The notes under the pieces: generated by a model | What the model was told of the DNA's origin: nothing | The model's input: the letters and a program-made list of their open reading frames with translations, nothing else | Database searches by the model: none | Part shown: piece by piece, positions 4,292-61,112 of the stretch | How the letters are laid out: each line of letters begins with the position of its first letter | Position numbering within the stretch: position 1 is the first letter of the stretch | Assembly (NCBI GenBank): GCA_964016885.1 | Contig: OZ024752.1 | Span: forward strand, 26,102,001-26,166,000 | Length of the DNA stretch: 64,000 nucleotides | DNA from: Eledone cirrhosa | Lineage: Eukaryota | Direction: 5' to 3' | Program-made: the position numbers and the translations under genes

Positions 4292-5160
4292 CTAAACTCC
4301 GCCAGTTGCAGACTGCACATTAACATGTGATATAACTCTCCACAAAGTTCGATTACCAGCAGCAGAGTTCAAAGAGCAAAGATCAAGTCTAGTCCATAAA
4401 TTGACATTGTCAAGCCATTGTTTTGGCTGCGGGCCCCTGCTTCTCTTACCAGCCAACCTTCCTTCCAGGCATAACATACTCACACCACGAGTTGATCTTT
4501 TTATATGGCCGTATAGTTTGAGTAATCTTGACTTGACAATTGATGTAATTCGTCTAAGTTTGGTAATGTTGAGCAGCTCACTGATACAGATACGGTCGCT
4601 GAGCCGCTTGCTCATGATGTGGTTCTGGATTGTAGAGAGCTTCTGAAGTGACCTTGTCGTCCAATTAACACGGTCAAGACCATATAACACAACTGGTAGA
4701 ATGTAAGTATCAAAGATCTTGGCCTTCAAATGATAGAAAACACGTTTTGATGTTAGTACTTCTTTGTTCTTGTTGAAAGCTGCCCAACCTAGAGCGATTC
4801 TATATTGCGCAGCAACCATTCCATTGTTGTTTGATGATAGTTTGTGACCGAGATATACAAACTCCGTAACTTGAGCAATTTGCTGGTTGTAGATTGTGAG
4901 TTGGAGATTGGCATTGTTTTCGTCAGTGGTCATACATTTTGTTTTGGAGATGTTGATGTGTAAGCAAGCCTCCAGCAAATGTCTGGCCAGTACATTCAGA
5001 AAGTCTTGCAGATCAGTTCTAGATTAACACACGATGGCCAGATCGCCAGCATAGCTAAGATTTGATAGGATTTTACCTCCTATTTGATAGCCAGAGGAGC
5101 ATTCTTCTTCAGTCTGGTAGGTAAGTGCAGCTATAACTATACAGAAAAGAAGTACTGATA
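4292..5160 (-). pseudogene. RTE-clade LINE reverse transcriptase, C-terminal fragment
   Basis: ORF 4292-4978 with INISKTKCM, EFVYLG, RLLKLYGHI, LEGRLAGKRSRG...WLD; upstream degenerate catalytic motif (NLSYAGDL for YADD) near 5040-5065. Confidence 0.85.
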
Positions 5161-10599: not shown

Positions 10600-10669
<70 letters not shown>

Positions 10670-10733
10670 GTAGAACACTGAAAGGTAATATCCGTAGTGG
10701 TAGAGCACTCAGTCCATGGGACGAGTTAGGTAG

Positions 10734-10825
10734 AAGTGGTTACACAACAGTTAGTTCACTATACTGAGGATCCGCTAAGCTGAAACAATTGTTCTCGGTA
10801 TGGTGAACTAACTGTTGTGTAACCA

Positions 10826-10828
<3 letters not shown>
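10734..10828. repeat. 35-bp inverted repeat with 25-nt spacer inside a short (TA)n-flanked insert
   Basis: AAGTGGTTACACAACAGTTAGTTCACTATACTGAG / CTCGGTATGGTGAACTAACTGTTGTGTAACCACTT. Confidence 0.9.
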
Positions 10829-10900
<72 letters not shown>

Positions 10901-25761: not shown

Positions 25762-25953
25762 ATAATTGTTTCTACTTTTGGCACCAGGCCAGCAATTATC
25801 CCAGTGCATTACTGGTACTTTATTTTATCGACCCCGTAAGGATGAAAGGCTAAGTTAACCTCGGCGGGATTTGAATTCAGAACGTAAAGAGCCAAAACTC
25901 TATGCTGCAAAGCATGGTGTCTGACGCCCTACCGATACTGCCAATCCACCACC
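25762..25953 (-). mobile_element. tRNA-derived SINE with Deu/Nin-type core
   Basis: Minus strand: TGGCAGTATCGGTAG A box, GAATTCAAATCC B box, GCCTTTCATCCTTACGGGGTCGATAAAATAAAGTACCAG core. Confidence 0.8.
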
Positions 25954-26269: not shown

Positions 26270-27080
26270 TTTGACCGGCCACCTTCCTGGTGGCAAGGTT
26301 GTAAAAGAAAAGAAATTGTCATCCCTTGAATCGCAAGAATGTTTTGCAAATTTTGAAGGTGCCAGCTATCGCAGCCATTTGTAGACTATGAATTAGGGAG
26401 CTGCGCTTTTTGTCCACAAATCCAAGTTCAGTCATACTTTGGTCCAAGCGGGTTGGTATATAACCCGTAGCACCAATAATGATGGGTATGAAGCTAAAGG
26501 TGTATCTTGGATACTGGATTTGTAAACTCCTCATCATTGGTCCGTAGATGTCCTCCTTCTCCTGTATTTTTCTGACAACGTTTACATCAAGTGGGCAGCT
26601 GATCTCCACAACAGAACACGTTTTCAATGTGTGGTCCCAAACTACAATATCAGGCCGGTTGTGCTTTAATTTGGTGGCAGTTTTTATTTTCAGGTTCCAC
26701 CAGTATTCCTTAGTGCCATCTGTCTCAATATATTCTTCCTCGTTTGTTGTTAATTTTGTTTTCCGAAGTGCGTTCCAGATGGTTCTAGCTATCCCATCGT
26801 GTTTCATGGGGAGGTAGTAGCGAGATGACATTCTTTCGCAGCTGGCAACAATGTGGCTTACATCCTCGATCTTTGTTTTACATAGCCTACATTTATTGTC
26901 AGCTGCTGGCCCTCCTCTTTTGTGCAGCAGATATTTGGTAGGGAGTTCTTGTTCCTGTATTGCATAGAGATATCCCTCAAGGTGTGATGTCATAAACTTG
27001 TCGGAACTCCATGCCAGGCTTTTTGAGTGGTTTATCCCCTCTATGGTCTGTGTTTTACGCCTCAAGTATCCATGCACAAC
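26270..27080 (-). pseudogene. R4/Dong-like non-LTR retrotransposon 3' part: CCHC knuckle plus restriction-like endonuclease
   Basis: ORF 26319-27077: CRLC..EDVSHIVASC, KHD, RPDIVVWD...VVEISCP...KEDIY; 3' end next to (ACAT)n. Confidence 0.85.
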
Positions 27081-27160
27081 TTTTTCTGTAAATTGGTCAC
27101 TTTTTCTGTAAATTGGTCACTTTTTCTGTAAATTGGTCACTTTTTCTGTAAATTGGTCAT
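27078..27160. repeat. 21-bp tandem repeat x4 at the 5' truncation junction of the R4-like element
   Basis: (ACTTTTTCTGTAAATTGGTC)-type unit repeated. Confidence 0.9.
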
Positions 27161-31032: not shown

Positions 31033-31822
<790 letters not shown>

Positions 31823-33833: not shown

Positions 33834-34001
33834 GTATGTATATATATACATATATATGTATATATATACATATATATATATATGTTGTAATAAAATGAAA
33901 ACGAAATTTCATTTCTCACTCTTAGTACGGCACTTACTTAATTTCGTTTTCATTTTATTACAACTTGTCGTTCTCGGTACGCCTGGCCGGACTCACTCGA
34001 T

Positions 34002-34049
34002 ATGCAAATTAGGCTGCTCAGCCGTTAATTTTCATAAGGAAAGTATATA
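34002..34049 (+). promoter_or_regulatory. Candidate snRNA-type promoter module (octamer ATGCAAAT, TAATTTTCATA, TATATA)
   Basis: Same motifs with near-identical spacing in divergent family F (56304-56350). Confidence 0.4.
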
Positions 34050-34083
34050 CTTTCGAACGTTCAACCATCTGGCAGAAGGGTAT

Positions 34084-34126
34084 ACGATGCTGATGATAGC
34101 TAACAAGCTTGAAACTAGTACATCGT
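34084..34126 (+). ncRNA. Minimal type I hammerhead (family A)
   Basis: ACGATG-CTGATGA-TAGCTAACAAGCTT-GAAA-CTAG-TA-CATCGT. Confidence 0.88.
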
Positions 34127-34537
34127 TCCTGTGTCAGTGTTGAACAAAAAGGTGACGTGGTTGCCTTAACACCGTACGGCATAAATTCAGGCTGTTCAGT
34201 TTGTTTACAAACGAACAAAGCGGGCGCTATAATAAGCGTCCGCTAAACTGATACGTACATATATGTATGTGTACCTGTATGTATATATATATATATATAT
34301 ATGCATGCTACTGTACGTCTGTATACATATATGTATGTACGTATACATACATACTTACATTTAAGTAAGTGCCGTACTAAGAGTGAGAAATGAAATTTCG
34401 TTTTCATTTTATTACAACTTGTCGTTCTCGGTACGCCTGGCCGGACTCACTCGATATGCAAATTAGGCAGCTCAGCCGTTAATTTTCATAAGGAAAGTAT
34501 ATACTTTCGAACGTTCAACCATCTGGCAGAAGGGTAT

Positions 34538-34580
34538 ACGATGCTGATGATAGCTAACAAGCTTGAAACTAGTACATCGT
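34538..34580 (+). ncRNA. Minimal type I hammerhead (family A, copy 2)
   Basis: Identical motif. Confidence 0.88.
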
Positions 34581-34989
34581 TCCTGTGTCAGTGTTGAACA
34601 AAAAGGTGACGTGGTTGCCTTAACACCGTACGGCATAAATTCAGGCTGTTCAGTTTGTTTACAAACGAACAAAGCGGGCGCTATAATAAGCGTCCGCTAA
34701 ACTGATACGTACATATATGTATGTGTACCTGTATGTATATATATATATATATATGCATGCTACTGTACGTCTGTATACATATATGTATGTACGTATACAT
34801 ACATACTTACATTTAAGTAAGTGCCGTACTAAGAGTGAGAAATGAAATTTCGTTTTCATTTTATTACAACTTGTCGTTCTCGGTACGCCTGGCCGGACTC
34901 ACTCGATATGCAAATTAGGCAGCTCAGCCGTTAATTTTCATAAGGAAAGTATATACTTTCGAACGTTCAACCATCTGGCAGAAGGGTAT

Positions 34990-35032
34990 ACGATGCTGAT
35001 GATAGCTAAGAAGCTTGAAACTAGTACATCGT
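34990..35032 (+). ncRNA. Minimal type I hammerhead (family A, copy 3)
   Basis: Same motif, loop II AAGA. Confidence 0.88.
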
Positions 35033-35183
35033 TCCTGTGTCAGTGTTGAACAAAAAGGTGACGTGGTTGCCTTAACACCGTACGGCATAAATTCAGGCTG
35101 TTCAGTTTGTTTACAAACGAACAAAGCGGGCGCTATAATAAGCGTCCGCTAAACTGATACGTACATATATGTATGTGTACCTG

Positions 35184-35243
<60 letters not shown>

Positions 35244-35312
35244 TGGTACTGTACGTCTGTATACATATATGTATGTACGTATACATACATACTTACATTT
35301 ATATATATATGC

Positions 35313-39146: not shown

Positions 39147-39330
39147 TATACATATATATATATGTATATATATATATGTATCTTTTAATATGAATGTAAT
39201 CTCTAAATGTGTACTGCCACACTAAATGCTGTAATGGATGTTGAACCACCAAGCAACAATATTTGCATATGTATCTGTATGTCTCTTGGGTTGAAAAGGA
39301 GGTCATACAAGTGTTGATTCATTAATAAAT

Positions 39331-39377
39331 TGCTCCGAAGAATCCAAACCTCCGTTTGGAGGAAACAGTTGTAAGCA
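39331..39377 (+). ncRNA. Type I hammerhead in 5' pLTR (variant core CCGAAGA)
   Basis: TGCT-CCGAAGA-ATCCAAACCTCCGTTTGGAG-GAAA-CAGTTG-TA-AGCA. Confidence 0.7.
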
Positions 39378-39630
39378 TAAAAATGTTTTGAACAGTTCTT
39401 TGATTCTTATAACTTATATATAACTGCTCTGTAAATCATCTGACGTTATTACATTGAGCTATTTAACTTACTGGTAATAAGGTAGTAATATATTACTGCC
39501 TACCACTATTTAGGGTTTGTAAAAATATATATAACTACAAAAGGTTTTTGTATTTGCATAACCATAAATAATATCCTTAATACTATTAACTGCTCCATAC
39601 TGTTGAGCTGACATACAATAAATTACCAAT

Positions 39631-42099
39631 ATGCTAATCAAAGACCAACTCCCCATGTCAACCAAGAACATACCAATACCATCCAAGAATACATATGAGA
39701 AATTGTTGATCAACAGTGTAAATTCCTTTATCAATAGAGTGAGATGGAGGACATTCCATTTTGATAGAAACAAATCTAACAATGTTAATAATACTAACAA
39801 ATTTGACTCCTTCGGCTTTAAAACCTTTAAAAGCCCCCCTCATAACACACTACTTAACTCCTTTGAAAATGACCTAATAAAACTAGTTAAGAACATTAAA
39901 AACAATAAGCACCATAATAGAAACAACACCTTCTTAAACAAACTTAACACCTCTATTAATGAATTCAAAACTAGTAATAAAATTATTGTACACGCGGATA
40001 AAACTAATAACATATACAGCCTGAATTATAATACTTATAGAAAGTTTATATATAATGAACTACATAAAAGCTACAAGAAAACTACTATGAAAAACTTAGA
40101 GGATATTAATATAGAGGGATATAATATAGTGTCTAAACTAGGACTTCAGAGGCATACACAACCATACACCCCAAACCCCGCTAGATTCTCTCTGAAGGAC
40201 CATAAGGAGGACTTCATTAGCAACCCCTCGATTAGACTTATCTGCCCTTCCAAGTCCGACAGTGGCATTATCAGCAAGAAAATTTTAGATAAAATCATCC
40301 CACAGATTAAACACAAGATACACCTTAAACAATGGGGAAATACGGGTGAAGTTATCGAATGGTTCAAAGATATCAAGAATAACAAGGACAAAAAATTTAT
40401 TCAATTTGATATCAATTCATACTACACCTCTATTTCCCCTATCCTATTAAATAAGGCACTAATCATGGCCATGAACAATAGCGACCTGACTAGAACCCAG
40501 ATTGATGTCATCCTTGCGGCCCGTAAAACCATAATCACCTTTGAGGACCAATTATGGACCCGCAAGGATACGCACAACAACTTCGACATAACTATGGGGT
40601 CTTCGACATAACTATGACTCGGCGCAGGTCACTGATTTGGTCGGCCTATACTTACTTAATGAAATCCATAAGGACCTTCCATACCTCAACGGTGGTTTGT
40701 ACCGCGATGATACACTTCTACTTATAGAATATAAAAAATTCAATATAGAAAGAACTAGAAAACTATTGCACAGGACATTCAAAAACTATAACCTTAGTAT
40801 CACCATGGACAAAAACACTAAAAACGTTAACTTCCTAGACGCCACACTATACCTCGACTCAAGGATATATACACCTTTCCATAAGCCTAACGAAAAACTC
40901 ATTTACGTGGATACCAAGTCTAATCACCCTAGATCAATATTAAACTCTATCTCTAAGGGGGTATCCAATAGAATCTCTAATATATCCTATGACGCAAACA
41001 TATTTAGCAAAAACTCGCAATATTATAATCAAGCATTAGCTAGAGCCGGCCATAATATAGAGATTGAGTTCCTACCTACGAAAACACATAGCTACAGCAT
41101 TATCTCGCACAATATGTCCATGAGGAAACCTAGTAATATGAATAGCAACCACACGCACACTAAAGCAGAGGGTGCCATCAAAGGTAACCATTACCACAGA
41201 AACTACCGTAGTACCTTAGGAGGAAACAACACACCAGACACTAAAAACAAAAATAGAAGAAGAAATAATACATTTTTCAACCCTTCTTTCAACCTAAACG
41301 TCTCCACCAACATACCTAGGGCTTTCTTCTCACTACTAGATAAAAACTTCCCTCTAGGACAGAAGTACCATAACCTTTTAAACAAAAACACTATTAAAAT
41401 CTCATACTCTACGACGCCTAACATAGCATACCACATAGCTAGTAGCAATAAAAGAAAAATTAATTCTTACTTCCAACAAACGAAATCGCAACAGGGGGTA
41501 AACCATCAAAATATCTCTGTAGCTAATAACCCTAACAACGGCAGTAATAATAGTAATAGCACTAGTATAAGCAATAACACCGGGGACGACAACCCACATA
41601 TCCAAAATCCTATAGCTACCACCCGGACTTCTGCACAGCATTATAACCAGCAGACTAACACCCAGAATAATTGTAACTGTAGAGCAAATAGAACCTGCCC
41701 TTTAGATAAAAATGCCTAATCAAGGATATCATATACTCATGCACCGTCACAACTAGCAACTCTTCAGAAACCTATGTAGGCTCCACTTCTAACTGCTTCA
41801 AAACCAGGTATAATTCGCACATCCACTCGTTCAAAAAGCACAGTCTAGCCAGCTCCACCTCACTATCTAGCTACATACACTATCTAAAAACTAAAAATAA
41901 ACCTTACACACTCAAATGGGAAGTGATATGTAGCGCGACTTCGTACAAACCACCTAATAAATTTTGTAACCTCTGTATACTAGAGACCCACACTATTATC
42001 TTCTCTAACCATAACCTACTTAACAAAAAATCTGAAGTGTTCGCAACTTGCCAGCACCGCTTCAGACATTCCTTCCAAAACTTTAAGCCCAATATATAG
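39631..42099 (+). pseudogene. Naiad-type PLE polyprotein (RT, CxCx5C linker, GIY-YIG) with two disruptions
   Basis: STKNIPIPS, LKDHKEDF..NPSIRLI.P.KS, FIQFDI.SYY.SI, ITMGS, GLYRDD, VNFLD, CNCRANRTCPL. Frame 41713-42099 (absent from the ORF track) reads IIYSC..YVGST..FKTRY..H..SF..TSLS.YI..CNLC..E..LLNKKSE.F..CQHR. Disrupted by a repeated CTTCGACATAACTATG (~40581-40616) and a frameshift in the A-run at 41708-41712. Confidence 0.92.
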
Positions 42100-43533
42100 C
42101 AATGTCGGACTTGAACCAGACACCACCTCTAGCATCAAACACCAAGGGCACACCTTATACCACATCCCCACACTCATTGATCCAATATAACACTAATCGG
42201 GACATCCCTCTAGAACCCTTCACAGCAGGAATACCCCTTTGTACTTCTACTTTAGATGTGACTGCATCCAGTTGCTTGAACTGCACTACACCACTTTATA
42301 ATTAATGTAAAATTTAAACATTGAATTGATTGTATTGTTGGTGCTATGCGGGTGATTTGCCATCGTTGGATAAATGGAAGACTAATTAATCTAGTAACGT
42401 TGATGAGCTGTATAACCTATATGCTGAGTGCAGTGAATGTATTGCAAGTGGCGTATGAGTTGTACATATATGTATGAATTGATGGTCAGATTAGTGACAT
42501 GAGGAGTGTAGATTGACCTCTGGTCTACCCTAGTGATAGTTATCTTTCGACATCCAATATAACATGCACTGACCTAGAGCTTACCAGGGATTATTATATA
42601 TTGAAGTGATTCTATAATCATCCTGCCAGGTTCTATGAGTAGACTACAATCACAATGATCATTGATTTAGAAATCTCGCTCATCGTGTAAAATATTCAAT
42701 TGTGGCACTCTATAATGGAGGATATCACCATAATATGAACACCTTCAGTACAGCTTAATAGACTACACTATAGTTAAGACACTTTAAATTTTTAGAAACT
42801 GTGTATAACCATAGAAGTTAGGGACTATTTTGAGACACAATTTAATAGTTAGTAATAGAAACCACTGAGTTACCTCCCCTCATGCATTAACTCGCCTTAG
42901 TCACACACACACTTCCAGAAAATATTTCGATGTCGATTCTCGCAACGTAAGAACCTGCTGTATTGAACATCAGACTTCGATTCTCTAAGAGGATTGTCAA
43001 ACGCCCAATATCGAATCGTCGTGGATTATGTGAGGGGCATATAATCTGAAAAATACGCTCCCCGGACTATGAAAATGTTGCTGTGCATGAAATCCATATC
43101 ATCGCTTTGCTACGCATTTCCAATATTTTTAATGCTTATATTATTTCTCCACGCACAGGCTATAACAATCATATAAAGAATTCATTACCAGTTCAACCCC
43201 CTTAACACTCTTGATCACCTGTTTAAGTGCTTCCATTACATGTAACACTCTGCCACACTATAGCATTATATAAACAAGACGCACGTGCTTGCCACACGTG
43301 TAACTATTCTACTCAATAACCGATTATGACTATCCTATCGCATTAATTTTCATGTTGTATTTTAACCTGTATTTTTGATTTTATCTTTTAATATGAATGT
43401 AATCTCTAAATGTGTACTGCCACACTAAATGCTGTAATGGATGTTGAACCACCAAGCAACAATATTTGCATATGTATCTGTATGTCTCTTGGGTTGAAAA
43501 GGAGGTCATATAAGTGTTCATTCATTAATAAAT

Positions 43534-43580
43534 TGCTCCGAAGAAACCAAACCTCGGTTTGCAGGAAACAGTTGTAAGCA
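43534..43580 (+). ncRNA. Type I hammerhead in 3' pLTR (variant core CCGAAGA)
   Basis: TGCT-CCGAAGA-..CAAACCTCGGTTTG..-GAAA-CAGTTG-TA-AGCA. Confidence 0.65.
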
Positions 43581-43623
43581 TAAAAATGTTTTGAACAGTT
43601 CTTTGATTCTTATAACTTATATA

Positions 43624-43716
<93 letters not shown>

Positions 43717-44132: not shown

Positions 44133-45087
44133 GTAAAAATTGGAATAAATGCTCTGAAATAGCGATATATATGTGAATATAGACATAGAATATTCGAAAA
44201 TATTCTGTATGTTTATAATAAACATTATGTACACAGCTAAGTATTCTATAAGTCTCTAGCTGTGTCATTCTCGATAAAAGCACTGGATATGTAGTCCTGA
44301 AGATTTCTAACAAGAATGAAACGCGTAGATTACTTCCCTTGCTTTTATCGAGAATCTAATTGTAATACGTGACGTATTCTATTCTATAGCGATTAGGTCT
44401 TCAAAATGTTTATTATAAACATACAGAATATTTTCGAATATTCTATGTCTATATTCACATATATATCGCTATTTCAGAGCATTTATTCCAATTTTTAATT
44501 TCTGCCGGACCGGCAACCGCTCTTTCAAACCAGTTCCTGTACACAGCTAAGTATTCTATAAGTCTCTAGCTGTGTCATTCTCGATAAAAGCACTGGATAT
44601 GTAGTCCTGAAGATTTCTAACAAGAATGAAACGCGTAGATTACTTCCCTTGCTTTTATCGAGAATCTAATTGTAATACGTGACGTATTCTATTCTATAGC
44701 GATTAGGTCTTCAAAATGTTTATTATAAACATACAGAATATTTTCGAATATTCTATGTCTATATTCACATATATATCGCTATTTCAGAGCATTTATTCCA
44801 ATTTCTAATTTCTGCCGGACCGGCAACCACTCTTTCAAACCAGTTCCTGTACACAGCTAAGTATTCTATAAGTCTCTAGCTGTGTCATTCTCGATAAAAG
44901 CACTGGATATGTAGTCCTGAAGATTTCTAACAAGAATGAAACGCGTAGATTACTTCCCTTGCTTTTATCGAGAATCTAATTGTAATACGTGACGTATTCT
45001 ATTCTATAGCGATTAGGTCTTCAAAATGTTTATTATAAACATACAGAATATTTTCGAATATTCTATGTCTATATTCACATATATATG
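44133..45087 (+). mobile_element. HHR retrozyme-like family C: ~92-bp inverted piece plus ~2.8 tandem 310-bp monomers
   Basis: HHR at 44291, 44601, 44911. Confidence 0.88.
44291..44333 (+). ncRNA. Minimal type I hammerhead (family C; repeats at 44601-44643 and 44911-44953)
   Basis: GTAGTC-CTGAAGA-TTTCTAACAAGAAT-GAAA-CGCG-TA-GATTAC, enclosed by a 16-bp stem ATTCTCGATAAAAGCA/TGCTTTTATCGAGAAT. Confidence 0.85.
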
Positions 45088-45138
45088 TAAGTATGTATGT
45101 ATACGTACATACATATATGTATACAGACGTACAGTAGC

Positions 45139-45177
<39 letters not shown>

Positions 45178-45603
45178 CAGGCACACATATATATATGTAC
45201 GTATCAGTTTAGCGAATATTTATTATAACATTCGCTTTGTTCGTTTGTAAACAAACGGACAGCCTAATTTATGCCGTGCGGTGTTAAGGCAACCACGTCA
45301 CCTTTTTGTTCAACACTGACACAGGAACGATGTACTAGTTTCAAGCTTCTTAGCTATCGTCAGCACCGTATACCCTTCTGCCAGATGGTTGAACGTTCGA
45401 AAGTATATACTTTCCTTATGAAAATTAACGGCTGAGCAGCCTAATTTGCATATCGAGTGAGTTCAGTCGGCAAGGCGCACCGAAAACGATAAGTTGGAAT
45501 AGAATGAAACGAAATTTCATTTCTCACTATTAGTACGGCACTTACTTAAATGTAAGTATGTATGTATACGTACATACATATATGTATACAGACGTACAGT
45601 AGC

Positions 45604-45605
<2 letters not shown>
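45087..45605 (-). mobile_element. Family A subfamily copy (~1.1 monomer), HHR at 45327-45369
   Basis: Reverse complement of family A with substitutions; ACGGTG-CTGACGA..GAAA-CTAG-TA-CATCGT. Confidence 0.85.
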
Positions 45606-45687
<82 letters not shown>

Positions 45688-45692
<5 letters not shown>

Positions 45693-46558
45693 TAAGGTAA
45701 TCGATTCTTTTACAATGGAATTAGCTCGAAGGAGGAAAATACCCAATGAGCCGTGTATAAACTAATATGTATGTGATGAAACACAGATACCAACACATCT
45801 GTATATATATTGCAAAAGAAAATTTAGCCACATTGAAGTATACTAATTATTATACTACAGTTTGTCCATATCGATTTAAAATAATAAATCAACAAAGACG
45901 AACTGTATTGCCAAGAGGCTATGATGTTTAGACACATTTAAATTTCAAAATCAAACCTGTTCCGTAGATAAGTTTAAACTTTAAAATCCAAATATGTTTC
46001 GAGTTAAATAAGTGTAGGAATATCATGTCCTGCCCTCCTCAGTAAACATCCAGGAACAAATTGATATGCTTCACTTCTAAATAATTTAAAAGACTGCGTG
46101 ACGCACATGGTTTAACAGTATCTAGCTAGTCTCATAACCGTACTGCTAGAAATAACAGTCGTATACATGAGGCGGCTTTCAGCTCAGACTAGGAGCAGTT
46201 ATTAATAAGGTAATGGATTCTTTTACAATGGAATTAGCTCGAAGGAGGAAAATACCCAATGAGCCGTGTATAAACTAATATGTATGTGATGAAACACAGA
46301 TACCAACACATCTGTATATATATTGCAAAAGAAAATTTAGCCACATTGAAGTATACTAATTATTATACTACAGTTTGTCCATATCGATTTAAAATAATAA
46401 ATCAACAAAGACGAACTGCATTGCCAAGAGGCTATGATGTTTAGACACATTTAAATTTCAAAATCAAACCTGTTCCGTAGATAAGTTTAAACTTTTCTTT
46501 TGCAATATATATACAAATGTGTTGGTATCTGTGTTTCATCACATACATATTAGTTTAT
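45688..46558 (-). mobile_element. HHR retrozyme-like family H: 513-bp monomer x~1.6 plus inverted piece 46495-46558
   Basis: ATTAATAAGGTAAT at 45688 and 46201. Confidence 0.82.
45923..46050 (-). ncRNA. Type I hammerhead with long stem III (family H)
   Basis: GATGTTTA-CTGAGGA-GGG..CTC-GAAA-CATATTTGGATTT..AAATTTAAATGTG-TC-TAAACATC. Confidence 0.78.
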
Positions 46559-46579
46559 TTATATATATATATATATATA

Positions 46580-47005
46580 TACATACAGGCACACATATAT
46601 ATATGTACGTATCAGTTTAGCGAATATTTATTATAACATTCGTGCCGTACTAAGAGTGAGAAATGAAATTTCGTTTCATTCTATTCCAACTTATCGTTTT
46701 CGGTGCGCCTGGCCGACTGAACTCACTCGATATGCAAATTAGTCTGCTCAGCCGTTAATTTTCATAAGGAACGTATATACTTTCGAACGTTCAACCATCT
46801 GGCAGAAGGGTATACAGTGCTGACGATAGCTAAGAAGCTTGAAAATAGTACATCGTTCCTCTGTCAGTGTTGAACAAAAAGGTGACGTGGTTGCCTTAAC
46901 ACCGTACGGCATAAATCAGTCTGTCCGTTTGTTTACAAACGAACAAAGCGAATGTTATAATAAATATTCGCTAAACTGATACGTACATATATATATGTGT
47001 GCCTG

Positions 47006-47047
<42 letters not shown>

Positions 47048-47161
47048 GAAGGCTACTGTACGTCTGTATACATATATGTATGTACGTATACATACATACT
47101 TACATTTAAGTAAGTGCCGTACTAAGAGTGAGAAATGAAATTTCTTTTCATTCTATTCCAA

Positions 47162-47165
<4 letters not shown>
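46580..47165 (+). mobile_element. Family A copy with inverted 5' piece; HHR partly degenerate
   Basis: Identity to family A; stems I and III mutated (ACAGTG, GAAAATAG). Confidence 0.82.
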
Positions 47166-47398: not shown

Positions 47399-49241
47399 CA
47401 GTTGGGTGCGGATGCATTCATGTATATATGTGTGTGTCCGCATGTATCTGTGTGTTTTTAAATATATTAATAACTCCCTCTGGTCGAGCAATCTTTGAGG
47501 TGTGGGGACAACTGGAAAGCTTCCATTACTCATACTTCTCGCCTTCTTCACTACCTCTTCTACGGCCTCGATATGAATACCCCCTCCGCCTCCGTGGTAT
47601 TTTCTTCGTGGTTATAAGAGGCTTAGCTCTGTTTCTCGACCGTTATATCGCGTGACTATCTCCCCCTCCGCCTTTTGGGATTCTTTCTCACGTCGTGTAG
47701 ACGCGTTCTTGAGACTAGTAAAATGAGGTATCCTCTTGATAAGTTGGCAGACCTCGCAAGGACTCTATATCTTTGATATATTGTTTTTGTTTATGCCACG
47801 AAACTACGTAGTCGAGGAATTTAGGAACAGTTTAGGTATGATACATTTTATTACTAATTATATCTAAATGTTTCTTCTCTCTTCATAATGTATTTTTAAC
47901 TCTGATACTGGTTCAGTCTGGTTCAAACTGAATTGGTCTGTCCCAGTCATTCATTGAGCAACATCGGTGAAGTTGGCACCCTTAACTCACAGTTGGGTGC
48001 GGATGCATTCATGTATATATGTGTGTGTCCGCATGTATCTGTGTGTTTTTAAATATATTAATAACTCCCTCTGGTCGAGCAATCTTTGAGGTGTGGGGAC
48101 AACTGGAAAGCTTCCATTACTCATACTTCTCGCCTTCTTCACTACCTCTTCTACGGCCTCGATATGAATACCCCCTCCGCCTCCGTGGTATTTTCTTCGT
48201 GGTTATAAGAGGCTTAGCTCTGTTTCTCGACCGTTATATCGCGTGACTATCTCCCCCTCCGCCTTTTGGGATTCTTTCTCACGTCGTGTAGACGCGTTCT
48301 TGAGACTAGTAAAATGAGGTATCCTCTTGATAAGTTGGCAGACCTCGCAAGGACTCTATATCTTTGATATATTGTTTTTGTTTATGCCACGAAACTACGT
48401 AGTCGAGGAATTTAGGAACAGTTTAGGTATGATACATTTTATTACTAATTATATCTAAATGTTTCTTCTCTCTTCATAATGTATTTTTAACTCTGATACT
48501 GGTTCAGTCTGGTTCAAACTGAATTGGTCTGTCCCAGTCATTCATTGAGCAACATCGGTGAAGTTGGCACCCTTAACTCACAGTTGGGTGCGGATGCATT
48601 CATGTATATATGTGTGTGTCCGCATGTATCTGTGTGTTTTTAAATATATTAATAACTCCCTCTGGTCGAGCAATCTTTGAGGTGTGGGGACAACTGGAAA
48701 GCTTCCATTACTCATACTTCTCGCCTTCTTCACTACCTCTTCTACGGCCTCGATATGAATACCCCCTCCGCCTCCGTGGTATTTTCTTCGTGGTTATAAG
48801 AGGCTTAGCTCTGTTTCTCGACCGTTATATCGCGTGACTATCTCCCCCTCCGCCTTTTGGGATTCTTTCTCACGTCGTGTAGACGCGTTCTTGAGACTAG
48901 TAAAATGAGGTATCCTCTTGATAAGTTGGCAGACCTCGCAAGGACTCTATATCTTTGATATATTGTTTTTGTTTATGCCACGAAACTACGTAGTCGAGGA
49001 ATTTAGGAACAGTTTAGGTATGATACATTTTATTACTAATTATATCTAAATGTTTCTTCTCTCTTCATAATGTATTTTTAACTCTGATACTGGTTCAGTC
49101 TGGTTCAAACTGAATTGGTCTGTCCCAGTCATTCATTGAGCAACATCGGTGAAGTTGGCACCCTTAACTCACAGTTGGGTGCGGATGCATTCATGTATAT
49201 ATGTGTGTGTCCGCATGTATCTGTGTGTTTTTAAATATATT
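47399..49241 (+). mobile_element. HHR retrozyme-like family I: ~3.1 apparently identical tandem 591-bp monomers
   Basis: Units start at 47399, 47990, 48581, 49172; (TA)n flanks; absent from the paralogous block at ~53700. Confidence 0.9.
47731..47818 (+). ncRNA. Type I hammerhead with U3-A8 core variant (repeats at 48322-48409 and 48913-49000)
   Basis: TCCTC-TTGATAA-GTTGGCA..TGCCAC-GAAA-CTACGTAG-TC-GAGGA. Confidence 0.78.
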
Positions 49242-49416
49242 ATATATATATATATATATATATACATATATATATAGTATATATATATATACATATATAT
49301 AGTATATATATATATATATACATATATACAGTATATATATATATATACATATATACAGTATATATATATATATATATACATATATACAGTATATACAGTA
49401 TATATATATATATATA

Positions 49417-51736: not shown

Positions 51737-52110
51737 ATAATTGTTTCTACTTTTTGGCACAAGGCCAGCAATTATCCCAGGGTATTACAGGTACTTTATT
51801 TTATCGACACCATAAGAATGAAAGGCAAAGTTAACCTCGTCGGGATTTGAACTCACATCATAAAGGGCCGTAACTCTTTGCTGCCAAGCATGGCGTCCGG
51901 CTCTCTACCGATACTGCCAATAATTTTTTTCTACTTTAGGCACAAGGGCAGCAATTACCCAGTACATTACTGGTACTTTATTTCATCGACCCCGTAAGGA
52001 TGAAAGGCAAAGTTAACCTCGGCGGGATTTGAACTCAGACTGTAAAGGGACGTAACTATGCTAGGAAGCATGGCGTTCAACCCTCTACCGATACTGCCAA
52101 TTCACCGCCC
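51737..52110 (-). mobile_element. Two tandem Nin-type tRNA SINEs
   Basis: Two successive matches to 25762-25953 (51737-51921, 51922-52110). Confidence 0.8.
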
Positions 52111-52177
52111 TATATATATTCATATTTCCTAAATTTTGTTTTCAAATCCATATTTATTAAAAACACCATGTTATTTA

Positions 52178-52313: not shown

Positions 52314-52682
52314 ATAAAAACAAATAACGAAACGAAATTAAATTTCGTTTCGCTTCTAACTCACTTTTGTATGACTGACGCTTAAACAATTAAGTTAAAG
52401 TGTACATCTACATATGTATACGGAAGTATTAGTATGCATATAAATACACACATGTATACATATGTACATGTACTCAGCTTTTCACTAGACACTTTACAGT
52501 GAGTGTCAGCTAGTCTGTATGTAACCACACAGGCGGACCGGGTTTTAGAGTCATACGAGTTTTCAAGGAAACACATTTCCTCTATTCTCCAGAGGGCCAG
52601 ACAGGAATATTGGACTAGTTTCGATGTTATTACATCTCATCAGCAATATTTACCCATCTTCCGGCTTCTCTGGAGAATTGTA

Positions 52683-52686
<4 letters not shown>
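52314..52686 (-). mobile_element. HHR retrozyme-like family F, minus copy (HHR 52606-52650)
   Basis: Circular permutation of 56211-56663. Confidence 0.85.
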
Positions 52687-56214
<3,528 letters not shown>

Positions 56215-56303
56215 TGAGTTAGAAGCGAAACGAAATTTAATTTCGTTTCGTTATTTGTTTTTATCGTTTCCGCTGAACCGGTGCGTACAATGACTCACGT
56301 TCT

Positions 56304-56350
56304 ATGCAAATTAGTCTACCCACTACTAATTTTCATAGAAAAAGCATATA
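56304..56350 (+). promoter_or_regulatory. Candidate snRNA-type promoter module (family F)
   Basis: ATGCAAAT at 56304, TAATTTTCATA at 56327, CATATA at 56345; matches family A spacing. Confidence 0.4.
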
Positions 56351-56396
56351 ACGATATGTGCTTTTACAATTCTCCAGAGAAGCCGGAAGATGGGTA

Positions 56397-56441
56397 AATA
56401 TTGCTGATGAGATGTAATAACATCGAAACTAGTCCAATATT
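56397..56441 (+). ncRNA. Minimal type I hammerhead (family F)
   Basis: AATATTG-CTGATGA-GATGTAATAACATC-GAAA-CTAG-TC-CAATATT, enclosed by ATTCTCCAGAG/CTCTGGAGAAT. Confidence 0.92.
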
Positions 56442-56724
56442 CCTGTCTGGCCCTCTGGAGAATAGAGGAAATGTGTTTCCTTGAAAACTCGTATGACTCT
56501 AAAACCCGGTCCGCCTGTGTGGTTACATACAGACTAGCTGACACTCACTGTAAAGTGTCTAGTGAAAAGCTGAGTACATGTACATATGTATACATGTGTG
56601 TATTTATATGCATACTAATACTTCCGTATACATATGTAGATGTACACTTTAACTTAATTGTTTATATATATATATATATATGTATACATATAAAATATAT
56701 AGAATATAATATATATATATGTAT

Positions 56725-60737: not shown

Positions 60738-60928
60738 TAATTGTTTCTACTTTTTGGCACAAGGCCAGCAATTATTTCAGTGTATTACTGGTACTTTATT
60801 TTATCGACCCCGTAAGGACGAAAGGCAAAGCAAACCACGGCGGAATTTGAACTCACACAATAAAGGGCCGTAACTCTTTGCTGCAAAGCATGGCGTCCGA
60901 CCCTCTACCGATACTGCCAATCCATGCC
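60738..60928 (-). mobile_element. Nin-type tRNA SINE
   Basis: Matches 25762-25953. Confidence 0.8.
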
Positions 60929-61112
60929 GAATATATGTATATATATATATCATGAAAAAAATTCTACATTTTCTATGTATTTTATCTGAGGAGGACATGT
61001 TTTGCTTTATTTTATACATAAAACTTTACATCTTCGAAATATATATAATGAAATAAATAGAGATGATATAAAGTATATATCTTTCGTTTATCACTATTAT
61101 AAATATATATAT

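Follow-up and report, generated by a model that had tools for sequence, protein, structure and literature searches.

Short tandem units that encode no protein and carry one type I hammerhead each are known in animals as non-LTR retrozymes (Cervera and de la Pena 2020, PMC7229834; Li et al. 2026, bioRxiv 10.64898/2026.07.22.740005). They fold into strongly self-paired RNAs, co-occur with Penelope-like elements (PLEs) and are reported to be strongly transcribed; the parts of the two papers available to us describe no promoter motif and name no promoter for the invertebrate ones. Internal promoters are known from newt satellite 2, a hammerhead satellite with a promoter of snRNA type (Coats et al. 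1994; cited in PMC2220036), and from a schistosome satellite, whose promoter is of Pol III type (PMC2220036). The plant LTR retrozyme NbRZ1 has a promoter, probably for Pol II, within its ribozyme-bearing repeat, and its start could be mapped only after inactivation of the hammerhead (PMC12029980). The octamer is common to snRNA, histone H2B and immunoglobulin (Ig) genes, and a consensus EMSA probe carries the same 11-mer as the repeats described below (PMC1800861); in Ig VH promoters it lies near -70, with TATA near -30 (PMC4260249). Hydra-clade PLEs have a hammerhead near the 3' end, and inverted 5' pieces, (TA)n targets and tail extensions have been described for PLEs (Craig et al. 2021, PMC8557442).

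We analysed a 64,000-nt stretch of DNA (the window) that contains two repeat families, A and F, in which a module of an octamer, an inverted octamer-like arm and a TATA-like word stands upstream of a type I hammerhead. Family A resembles the metazoan retrozymes in its short tandem non-coding units with one hammerhead each, and both families share with them the strongly self-paired fold and the co-occurrence with PLEs; they differ in having ~450-nt monomers and an internal TA-rich palindrome. Newt satellite 2 reportedly also uses an octamer, with a start just upstream of the ribozyme. In A and F, by contrast, the octamer lies ~42 nt from the TATA word and faces an inverted copy of itself, with no identifiable PSE. 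An octamer ~40 nt upstream of TATA is also found in Ig VH and H2B promoters (PMC4260249, PMC1800861); those belong to vertebrate protein genes, whereas we deal with an invertebrate-type mobile element that has a weak TATA. Hydra-clade PLEs share with A and F the (TA)n insertion, inverted 5' piece, tail extension and position of the hammerhead, and one such element lies 4 kb away. However, A and F tails measure 56-66 nt against the 30-40 nt described (PMC8557442), neither family can be aligned to the pLTR of that element, and the octamer is not general in the Hydra clade. NbRZ1 differs in being an LTR element with a type III hammerhead, and no octamer is reported in the available text (PMC12029980). 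A literature search that covered few subscription papers, and sources in part, found no earlier description of an invertebrate retrozyme that carries an Oct-TATA module.

The reading that we consider most likely, with a probability of roughly 45%, is that the module is the compact Pol II promoter of A and F themselves and doubles as a hairpin in their RNA. A POU/Oct factor would bind arm 1, and perhaps also the weaker inverted arm 2, with a weak TATA about 41-42 nt downstream of the octamer. Transcription would start ~30 nt past the TATA word (predicted at A34074 in family A and A56376 in family F), immediately ahead of hammerhead stem I. Where monomers are arrayed in tandem, the transcript would run on through the next unit, and two hammerheads would release a unit-length RNA, possibly as a circle, with the module inside; a PLE reverse transcriptase/endonuclease may then insert the unit RNA at (TA)n, so that the promoter travels with the element. 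Inverted sites would also pair with each other, which suits an RNA built as a chain of hairpins. The retrozyme-internal promoters of newt satellite 2 and NbRZ1 lend this scheme support by analogy. A promoter inside the monomer had been the core of the original prediction and stands as the single best explanation; the snRNA type assigned to it is not supported, and a rival based on RNA structure had been overlooked. An RNA-only role is a serious rival, while an snRNA-type promoter and mere common descent are less likely. As the candidate is a defined 50-nt segment with a predicted start, the promoter question is directly testable. If the promoter reading is true, the module would add a second promoter architecture to the snRNA type of the newt and the Pol III type of the schistosome, and would provide a compact promoter where genetic tools for the lineage are few.

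The family A insertion (33884..35300, +) consists of an inverted 5' piece (33884-33939) and about three tandem monomers of 452-454 nt (period 452, 2.8 copies). It is flanked by (TA)n tracts, each tandem monomer carries the module and a hammerhead, and the ORFs of at least 150 aa overlapping the repeat are microsatellite-derived only. Sequence and copy alignment place GACTCAC at 33990..33996 (+) in the first monomer. It is followed on the same strand by arm 1, TATGCAAATTAG (34001..34012), which is the octamer ATGCAAAT (from 34002) with its flanks; by arm 2, TAATTTTCATA (34026..34036); and by hairpin 2 (34039..34054), which holds GTATATA (34043), with TATATA at 34044-34049, 42 nt past the octamer. 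A CA dinucleotide at 34073..34074 (+), 30 nt past the TATA word, is the predicted start site. The type I hammerhead lies in a long stem I (34059..34145, +), with its core at 34090-34115 and a predicted cut after GUA 34120. The module recurs at 34455..34503 and 34907..34955 (both +) in the second and third monomers. Three dispersed A copies were found: 45089..45620 (-; arm 1 at 45441-45452), 46642..47163 (+, with tail; arm 1 at 46731) and 52921..53458 (+; arm 1 at 53010), the last a near-duplicate of the second.

Family F is represented in the window by one single and one truncated copy. The single monomer (56211..56663, +) has the motifs in the same order, starting at 56292, 56304, 56327 and 56344 (arm 1 56303-56314, arm 2 56327-56337, GCATATA 56344-56350), followed on the + strand by a CA at 56375-56376, a hammerhead core at 56404 and a predicted cut after GUC 56434. 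The 5'-truncated copy (52317..52686, -) keeps the hammerhead and tail without the module. Both hammerheads are of type I with a minimal palindromic stem III, lie downstream of the module and show compensatory stem changes between the families; an Rfam search gave no match for them at the gathering score. As originally described, the motif string is present in both families with a spacing that differs by one base, the octamer lying 42 nt from TATA in A and, measured to the aligned position, 41 nt in F. Two other kinds of hammerhead-like sequence were seen in the window: a short element between (TA)n tracts (10667-10830, +) that forms one nearly perfect long hairpin and has no octamer, and candidate CTGANGA...GAAA cores that recur within three further repeat families (24553 -, 63038 -, 61293 +, 61749 -, 17337 +, 16770 -).

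The window contains TATGCAAATTAG seven times, where shuffles predict 0.03, in six family A copies and one F copy. The module stands in the three tandem A monomers, in the three dispersed A copies, of which two are near-duplicates, and in one F copy, so that the motif string is found in 6/6 A and 1/2 F copies. Arm 1 is identical in 7/7 of the window copies with the module. GACTCAC as a family A motif holds in 3/6 A copies, the others reading AACTCAC or AACTCAT, and only its ACTCA part is kept across all seven aligned copies. GTATATA has 373 matches in the (TA)n-rich window, so the TATA word alone carries little weight. The words TATATACT and CATATAAC also depart from the canonical TATA consensus. 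A non-canonical and abundant TATA speaks against the promoter reading.

It had been claimed that most of the A and F monomers differ. Whole-monomer alignment contradicts this, with 60% identity over all columns and 68% over ungapped ones. A and F are thus sister families, homologous end to end, and because of this homology their shared motifs do not reflect convergence. The two arms are the longest A-F identical runs (12 and 11 nt), exceeding both hammerhead-core halves (9 and 9). Since runs of 12 and 11 arose in 5-7% of column permutations (P 0.05-0.07), comparing A with F gives, by itself, no more than borderline evidence of constraint, which, with the sharing of motifs by descent, counts against the promoter reading. 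The same figures favour the explanation that the module has no special function and that its motifs were inherited from one A/F ancestor within a slowly changing AT-rich palindrome. The module is also present in just one F copy and absent from family B and the truncated F copy. Even so, we consider this explanation unlikely: mere descent does not account for arms that exceed the core halves in identical length, nor for a module about as quiet as the core among the variants listed below.

Next, the pattern of conservation was examined. In a seven-copy alignment, all 10 pairs of hairpin 1 were invariant compared with 23 of 74 other non-core pairs (Fisher p 3e-5; the helix was picked post hoc, pairs are not independent, and the single F copy is imperfectly aligned). 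Three pairs predicted within the catalytic core were left out of this count. Two-sided (compensatory) changes occurred in 15 of 87 pairs, all in other helices. Variants were also surveyed for one monomer at 80% likeness in DNA contigs from four of six runs (organisms A, A, B and C). Among the variable places listed, at least 5 fell in the 64-nt module, at least 22 in 76 flanking nt (p 0.002) and at least 2 in the 33-nt core, making the module about as quiet as the core; were all 12 further variants beyond those listed to lie in the module, the contrast with the flanks would be gone (p 0.85). The summed contig depth was very high and is not a copy number. Arm 1 varied, among the listed variants, in one contig only, from organism B. 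As hairpin 1 is invariant while other helices change sequence and keep their pairs, and arm 1 is nearly fixed, the sequence itself appears to be constrained and not pairing alone. Another subfamily, met at a loose end at 34602, has a different hairpin sequence, with pairing kept and sequence free. A further subfamily (runs X1, X5 and X6) diverges at 34403, with a T6 run in the tail region.

Arm 2 behaves differently from arm 1. Two changes of near-equal depth (53% in X1, 68% in X5 and ~2% in X6) convert it to TAATATGCATA, which is the arm 2 reading in about half of the depth in organism A and is found on one contig at a loose end in X6. TAATATGCATA repairs the old mismatch and creates a new one, so that both states are one base off the reverse octamer. 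Variation of arm 2 at two places that moves a single mismatch counts against the promoter reading. A single mismatch in both states favours an RNA-only module, in which the hairpin with its conserved internal mismatch and a second hairpin would be the recognition target of a protein, either the PLE reverse transcriptase/endonuclease or a host factor. Such a module would position target-primed reverse transcription (starting 36-43 nt upstream) or make the circle more stable; its match to the octamer would then be accidental, and promoters in the flanking DNA would drive transcription. We regard this as possible, at a probability clearly below that of the promoter. If it is true, the module points to a template signal recognised by PLE reverse transcriptases.

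Several structural results bear on this choice. TAATTTTCATA is the reverse complement of TATGCAAATTA bar one position, an inverted repeat overlooked earlier. The arms of hairpin 1 pair with probabilities of 0.77-1.0. The TATA word sits inside hairpin 2, whose length differs between A and F; family F extends the stem of hairpin 1 and lengthens both hairpins. The predicted folds of whole monomers are much stronger than those of shuffled sequences (z -4.6 for A, -5.5 for F). Because the arms pair, the TATA word lies in a hairpin and the monomers are strongly folded, the promoter reading must be weighed against RNA structure; these data favour an RNA-only module, and the well-paired arms and longer F stem argue against a promoter. 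By contrast, hairpin 2 is broken in the two near-duplicate A copies (46642 and 52921) while TATATA is kept intact, and the inner stem of hairpin 1 is disturbed in 3/6 A copies. Stem-breaking copies that keep TATATA suggest a promoter and are not expected of RNA structure alone. An RNA-only module also leaves unexplained why the unvarying word should be precisely an octamer, placed at a promoter-like distance from TATA.

Insertion ends were examined as well. A and F insertions lie within (TA)n, have inverted 5' pieces and end at either of two T-rich points ~56-66 nt apart; inverted 5' piece, tail extension and (TA)n target are all traits of PLE mobilisation. The monomers thus fit non-autonomous retrozymes of the non-LTR kind whose insertion ends are of Penelope type. 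The module lies within every A insertion in the window, and therefore the reverse-transcribed template contained it. One class of ends sits just 5' of the module, which is again what an RNA-only signal might produce. Beyond the window, the A/F sequence model gave 0 matches in 88 Hydra loci and the module pattern 0 matches in metagenome contigs. The pattern had one match in viral contigs, which lies inside an apparent phage coding sequence and was taken as chance.

If the module is a promoter, its type can be judged from spacing. The constrained word is the POU-bound octamer, at a distance from TATA like that in VH promoters, which supports the promoter reading; the 41-42 nt between them would fit a compact Oct-TATA Pol II promoter and not snRNA PSE-TATA spacing. 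The alternative is an snRNA-type (SNAPc/PSE) promoter for Pol II or a U6-like one for Pol III, in which arm 2 or its flank would be the host PSE. Compact type 3 promoters, H1 among them, do contain an octamer and a TATA (PMC11340601), and newt satellite 2 (PMC2220036) is a true precedent for an internal snRNA-type promoter, as originally cited. Moreover, the first T4 run in family A lies ~325 nt past the predicted start, in the tail region; avoidance of T4 runs in A and F, a possible hint of Pol III, was not significant (P 0.51-0.56). Arm 2, however, is inverted octamer-like with no recognisable PSE, and lies 18-19 nt from the TATA word compared with 33 nt from the PSEA start to TATA in insect U6 promoters (PMC1761439). 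The position ~33 nt before the TATA word is a variable loop. In H1 a Staf site and a PSE stand between octamer and TATA (PMC11340601); A and F leave little room for such a block and have none, their octamer being adjacent and not distal. The snRNA label is therefore not supported, and we regard a promoter of this type as improbable.

The compact Pol II promoter predicts a start at the CA dinucleotide, which lies 30-31 nt past TATA in both families at non-homologous positions and so supports the reading weakly. The predicted A start would leave a 47-nt leader before the cut; 47 nt is reportedly also the leader figure for newt satellite 2. Five contaminated assemblies yielded U6 in 0/5, U2 in 1/5 and a truncated U1 in 1/5; these U1 and U2 genes were not used as a PSE reference because the host is different and unrelated. 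Some assemblies deposited as prokaryotic contain Hydra PLEs and U1/U2 snRNA genes, evidently as contamination from animal hosts. Nothing usable was found in the literature on mollusc U6 promoters, and sigma-70 and tRNA scans were irrelevant or empty.

A PLE with three ORF pieces occupies 39182..43625 (+), with pLTRs at 39182-39422 and 43385-43625. It had been called Naiad, an identity rejected here: Naiad needs an N-terminal GIY-YIG, and the GIY-YIG of this element is C-terminal (E 0.0046, below the Pfam cut-off). Its motifs are of Hydra type, namely RWR (RWK-like), DKT, CNCRANRTC (CxCX5C linker) and a (TA)n target, and the C-terminal endonuclease has CNLC and CQH (CxxC/CxH). By these motifs, judged against the clade definition (PMC8557442), the element appears to belong to the Hydra clade. 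As neither A nor F aligns to its pLTR, we count the element only as a possible mobiliser. Its hammerhead-like cores (39335 and 43538, +) read CCGAAGA and not CTGANGA, and their activity is doubtful. The pLTR ends AACTT/A (39405-39475, +), like family A tails, and a second AACTT/A ~47 nt on resembles the two-end arrangement of A and F.

The original prediction also held that the octamer occurs upstream of the hammerhead in both pLTRs. It does, as TATGCAAAT at 39261..39269 (-) and 43464-43472, 67 nt before the hammerhead-like core; it is nevertheless in the opposite orientation, and because the pLTRs are copies (236/241 identical) the two count as one observation (P 0.04 on its own). A second TATGCAAAT lies in the 5' untranslated region (39552..39560, -), giving two in 449 terminal nt and none in the 3754-nt body (P ~3e-4, post hoc). 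Both are reversed relative to A and F, which suits a DNA site, and they thereby support a promoter. No comparable hairpin surrounds the octamers of the Hydra termini, and the pLTR (one Hydra pLTR in the window) has no significant alignment to A or F, which counts against the RNA-only module. The argument does not generalise across the clade: of 80 hammerheads, located in 61 of the 88 Hydra loci that come from other hosts, only 1 had an octamer within 200 nt upstream, about the background rate, in a set with many redundant members and some short flanks. The supplement of Craig et al. 2021 (584,131 characters) contained 11 exact octamers, none in the Hydra consensus section, in a search blind to words broken across lines. 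Scans of viral and genome contigs with a single Hydra protein, and an alignment-based viral scan, found nothing. The Penelope promoter, moreover, is internal and TATA-less (PMC2377424). The 1/80 count and the TATA-less promoter weigh against a promoter in A and F, and the octamer, if it matters, would be lineage-specific. A broader proposal is that the inverted POU-site pair and TATA form a dual-coded element, acting at the DNA level as a self-contained, POU-driven Pol II promoter and at the RNA level as a hairpin that is required, and that the autonomous Hydra partner in this lineage independently recruited the same host factor. We put this forward tentatively, as rather doubtful in its full form. 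If true, the proposal would identify the promoter that an invertebrate non-LTR retrozyme uses, and would mean that POU-responsive mini-promoters are being spread across the genome by a repeat of very high copy number.

Family B is a recent, 310-nt tandem type I hammerhead repeat with three cores and an inverted 5' piece (44136..45086, +; repeat 44228..45086), whose three copies are ~99% identical. The A/F sequence model matches it in the window (E 2e-5), suggesting that it is a distant relative of A and F. A TATAAG, 50 nt ahead of the core (44557), occupies the loop of a hairpin, and no octamer was found in the family, even at one mismatch. A relative that lacks the octamer counts against the promoter reading, and its hairpin at the position of the module is in line with an RNA-only function.

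Other repeats were noted in the window. Families A and F and another repeat form a nested cluster (45690-46986 and 52317-53458) with local duplications and inversions, in which one F copy is joined to a shared flank. A dispersed repeat of ~180 nt, presumably SINE-like, occurs at 25767-25953, 51740-52125, 56066-56214 and 60740-60944, and one copy abuts the F monomer. About three 591-nt copies at 47399-49242 are 100% identical in BLAST, reflecting either a very recent duplication or an assembly artefact. Finally, fragments of a Tc1/mariner-type DDE transposase and of two non-LTR retrotransposon ORFs lie on the - strand at 31264-31785, 26322-27116 and 4295-5023, with Pfam matches to DDE_3, zf-RVT and, weakly, RVT_1.
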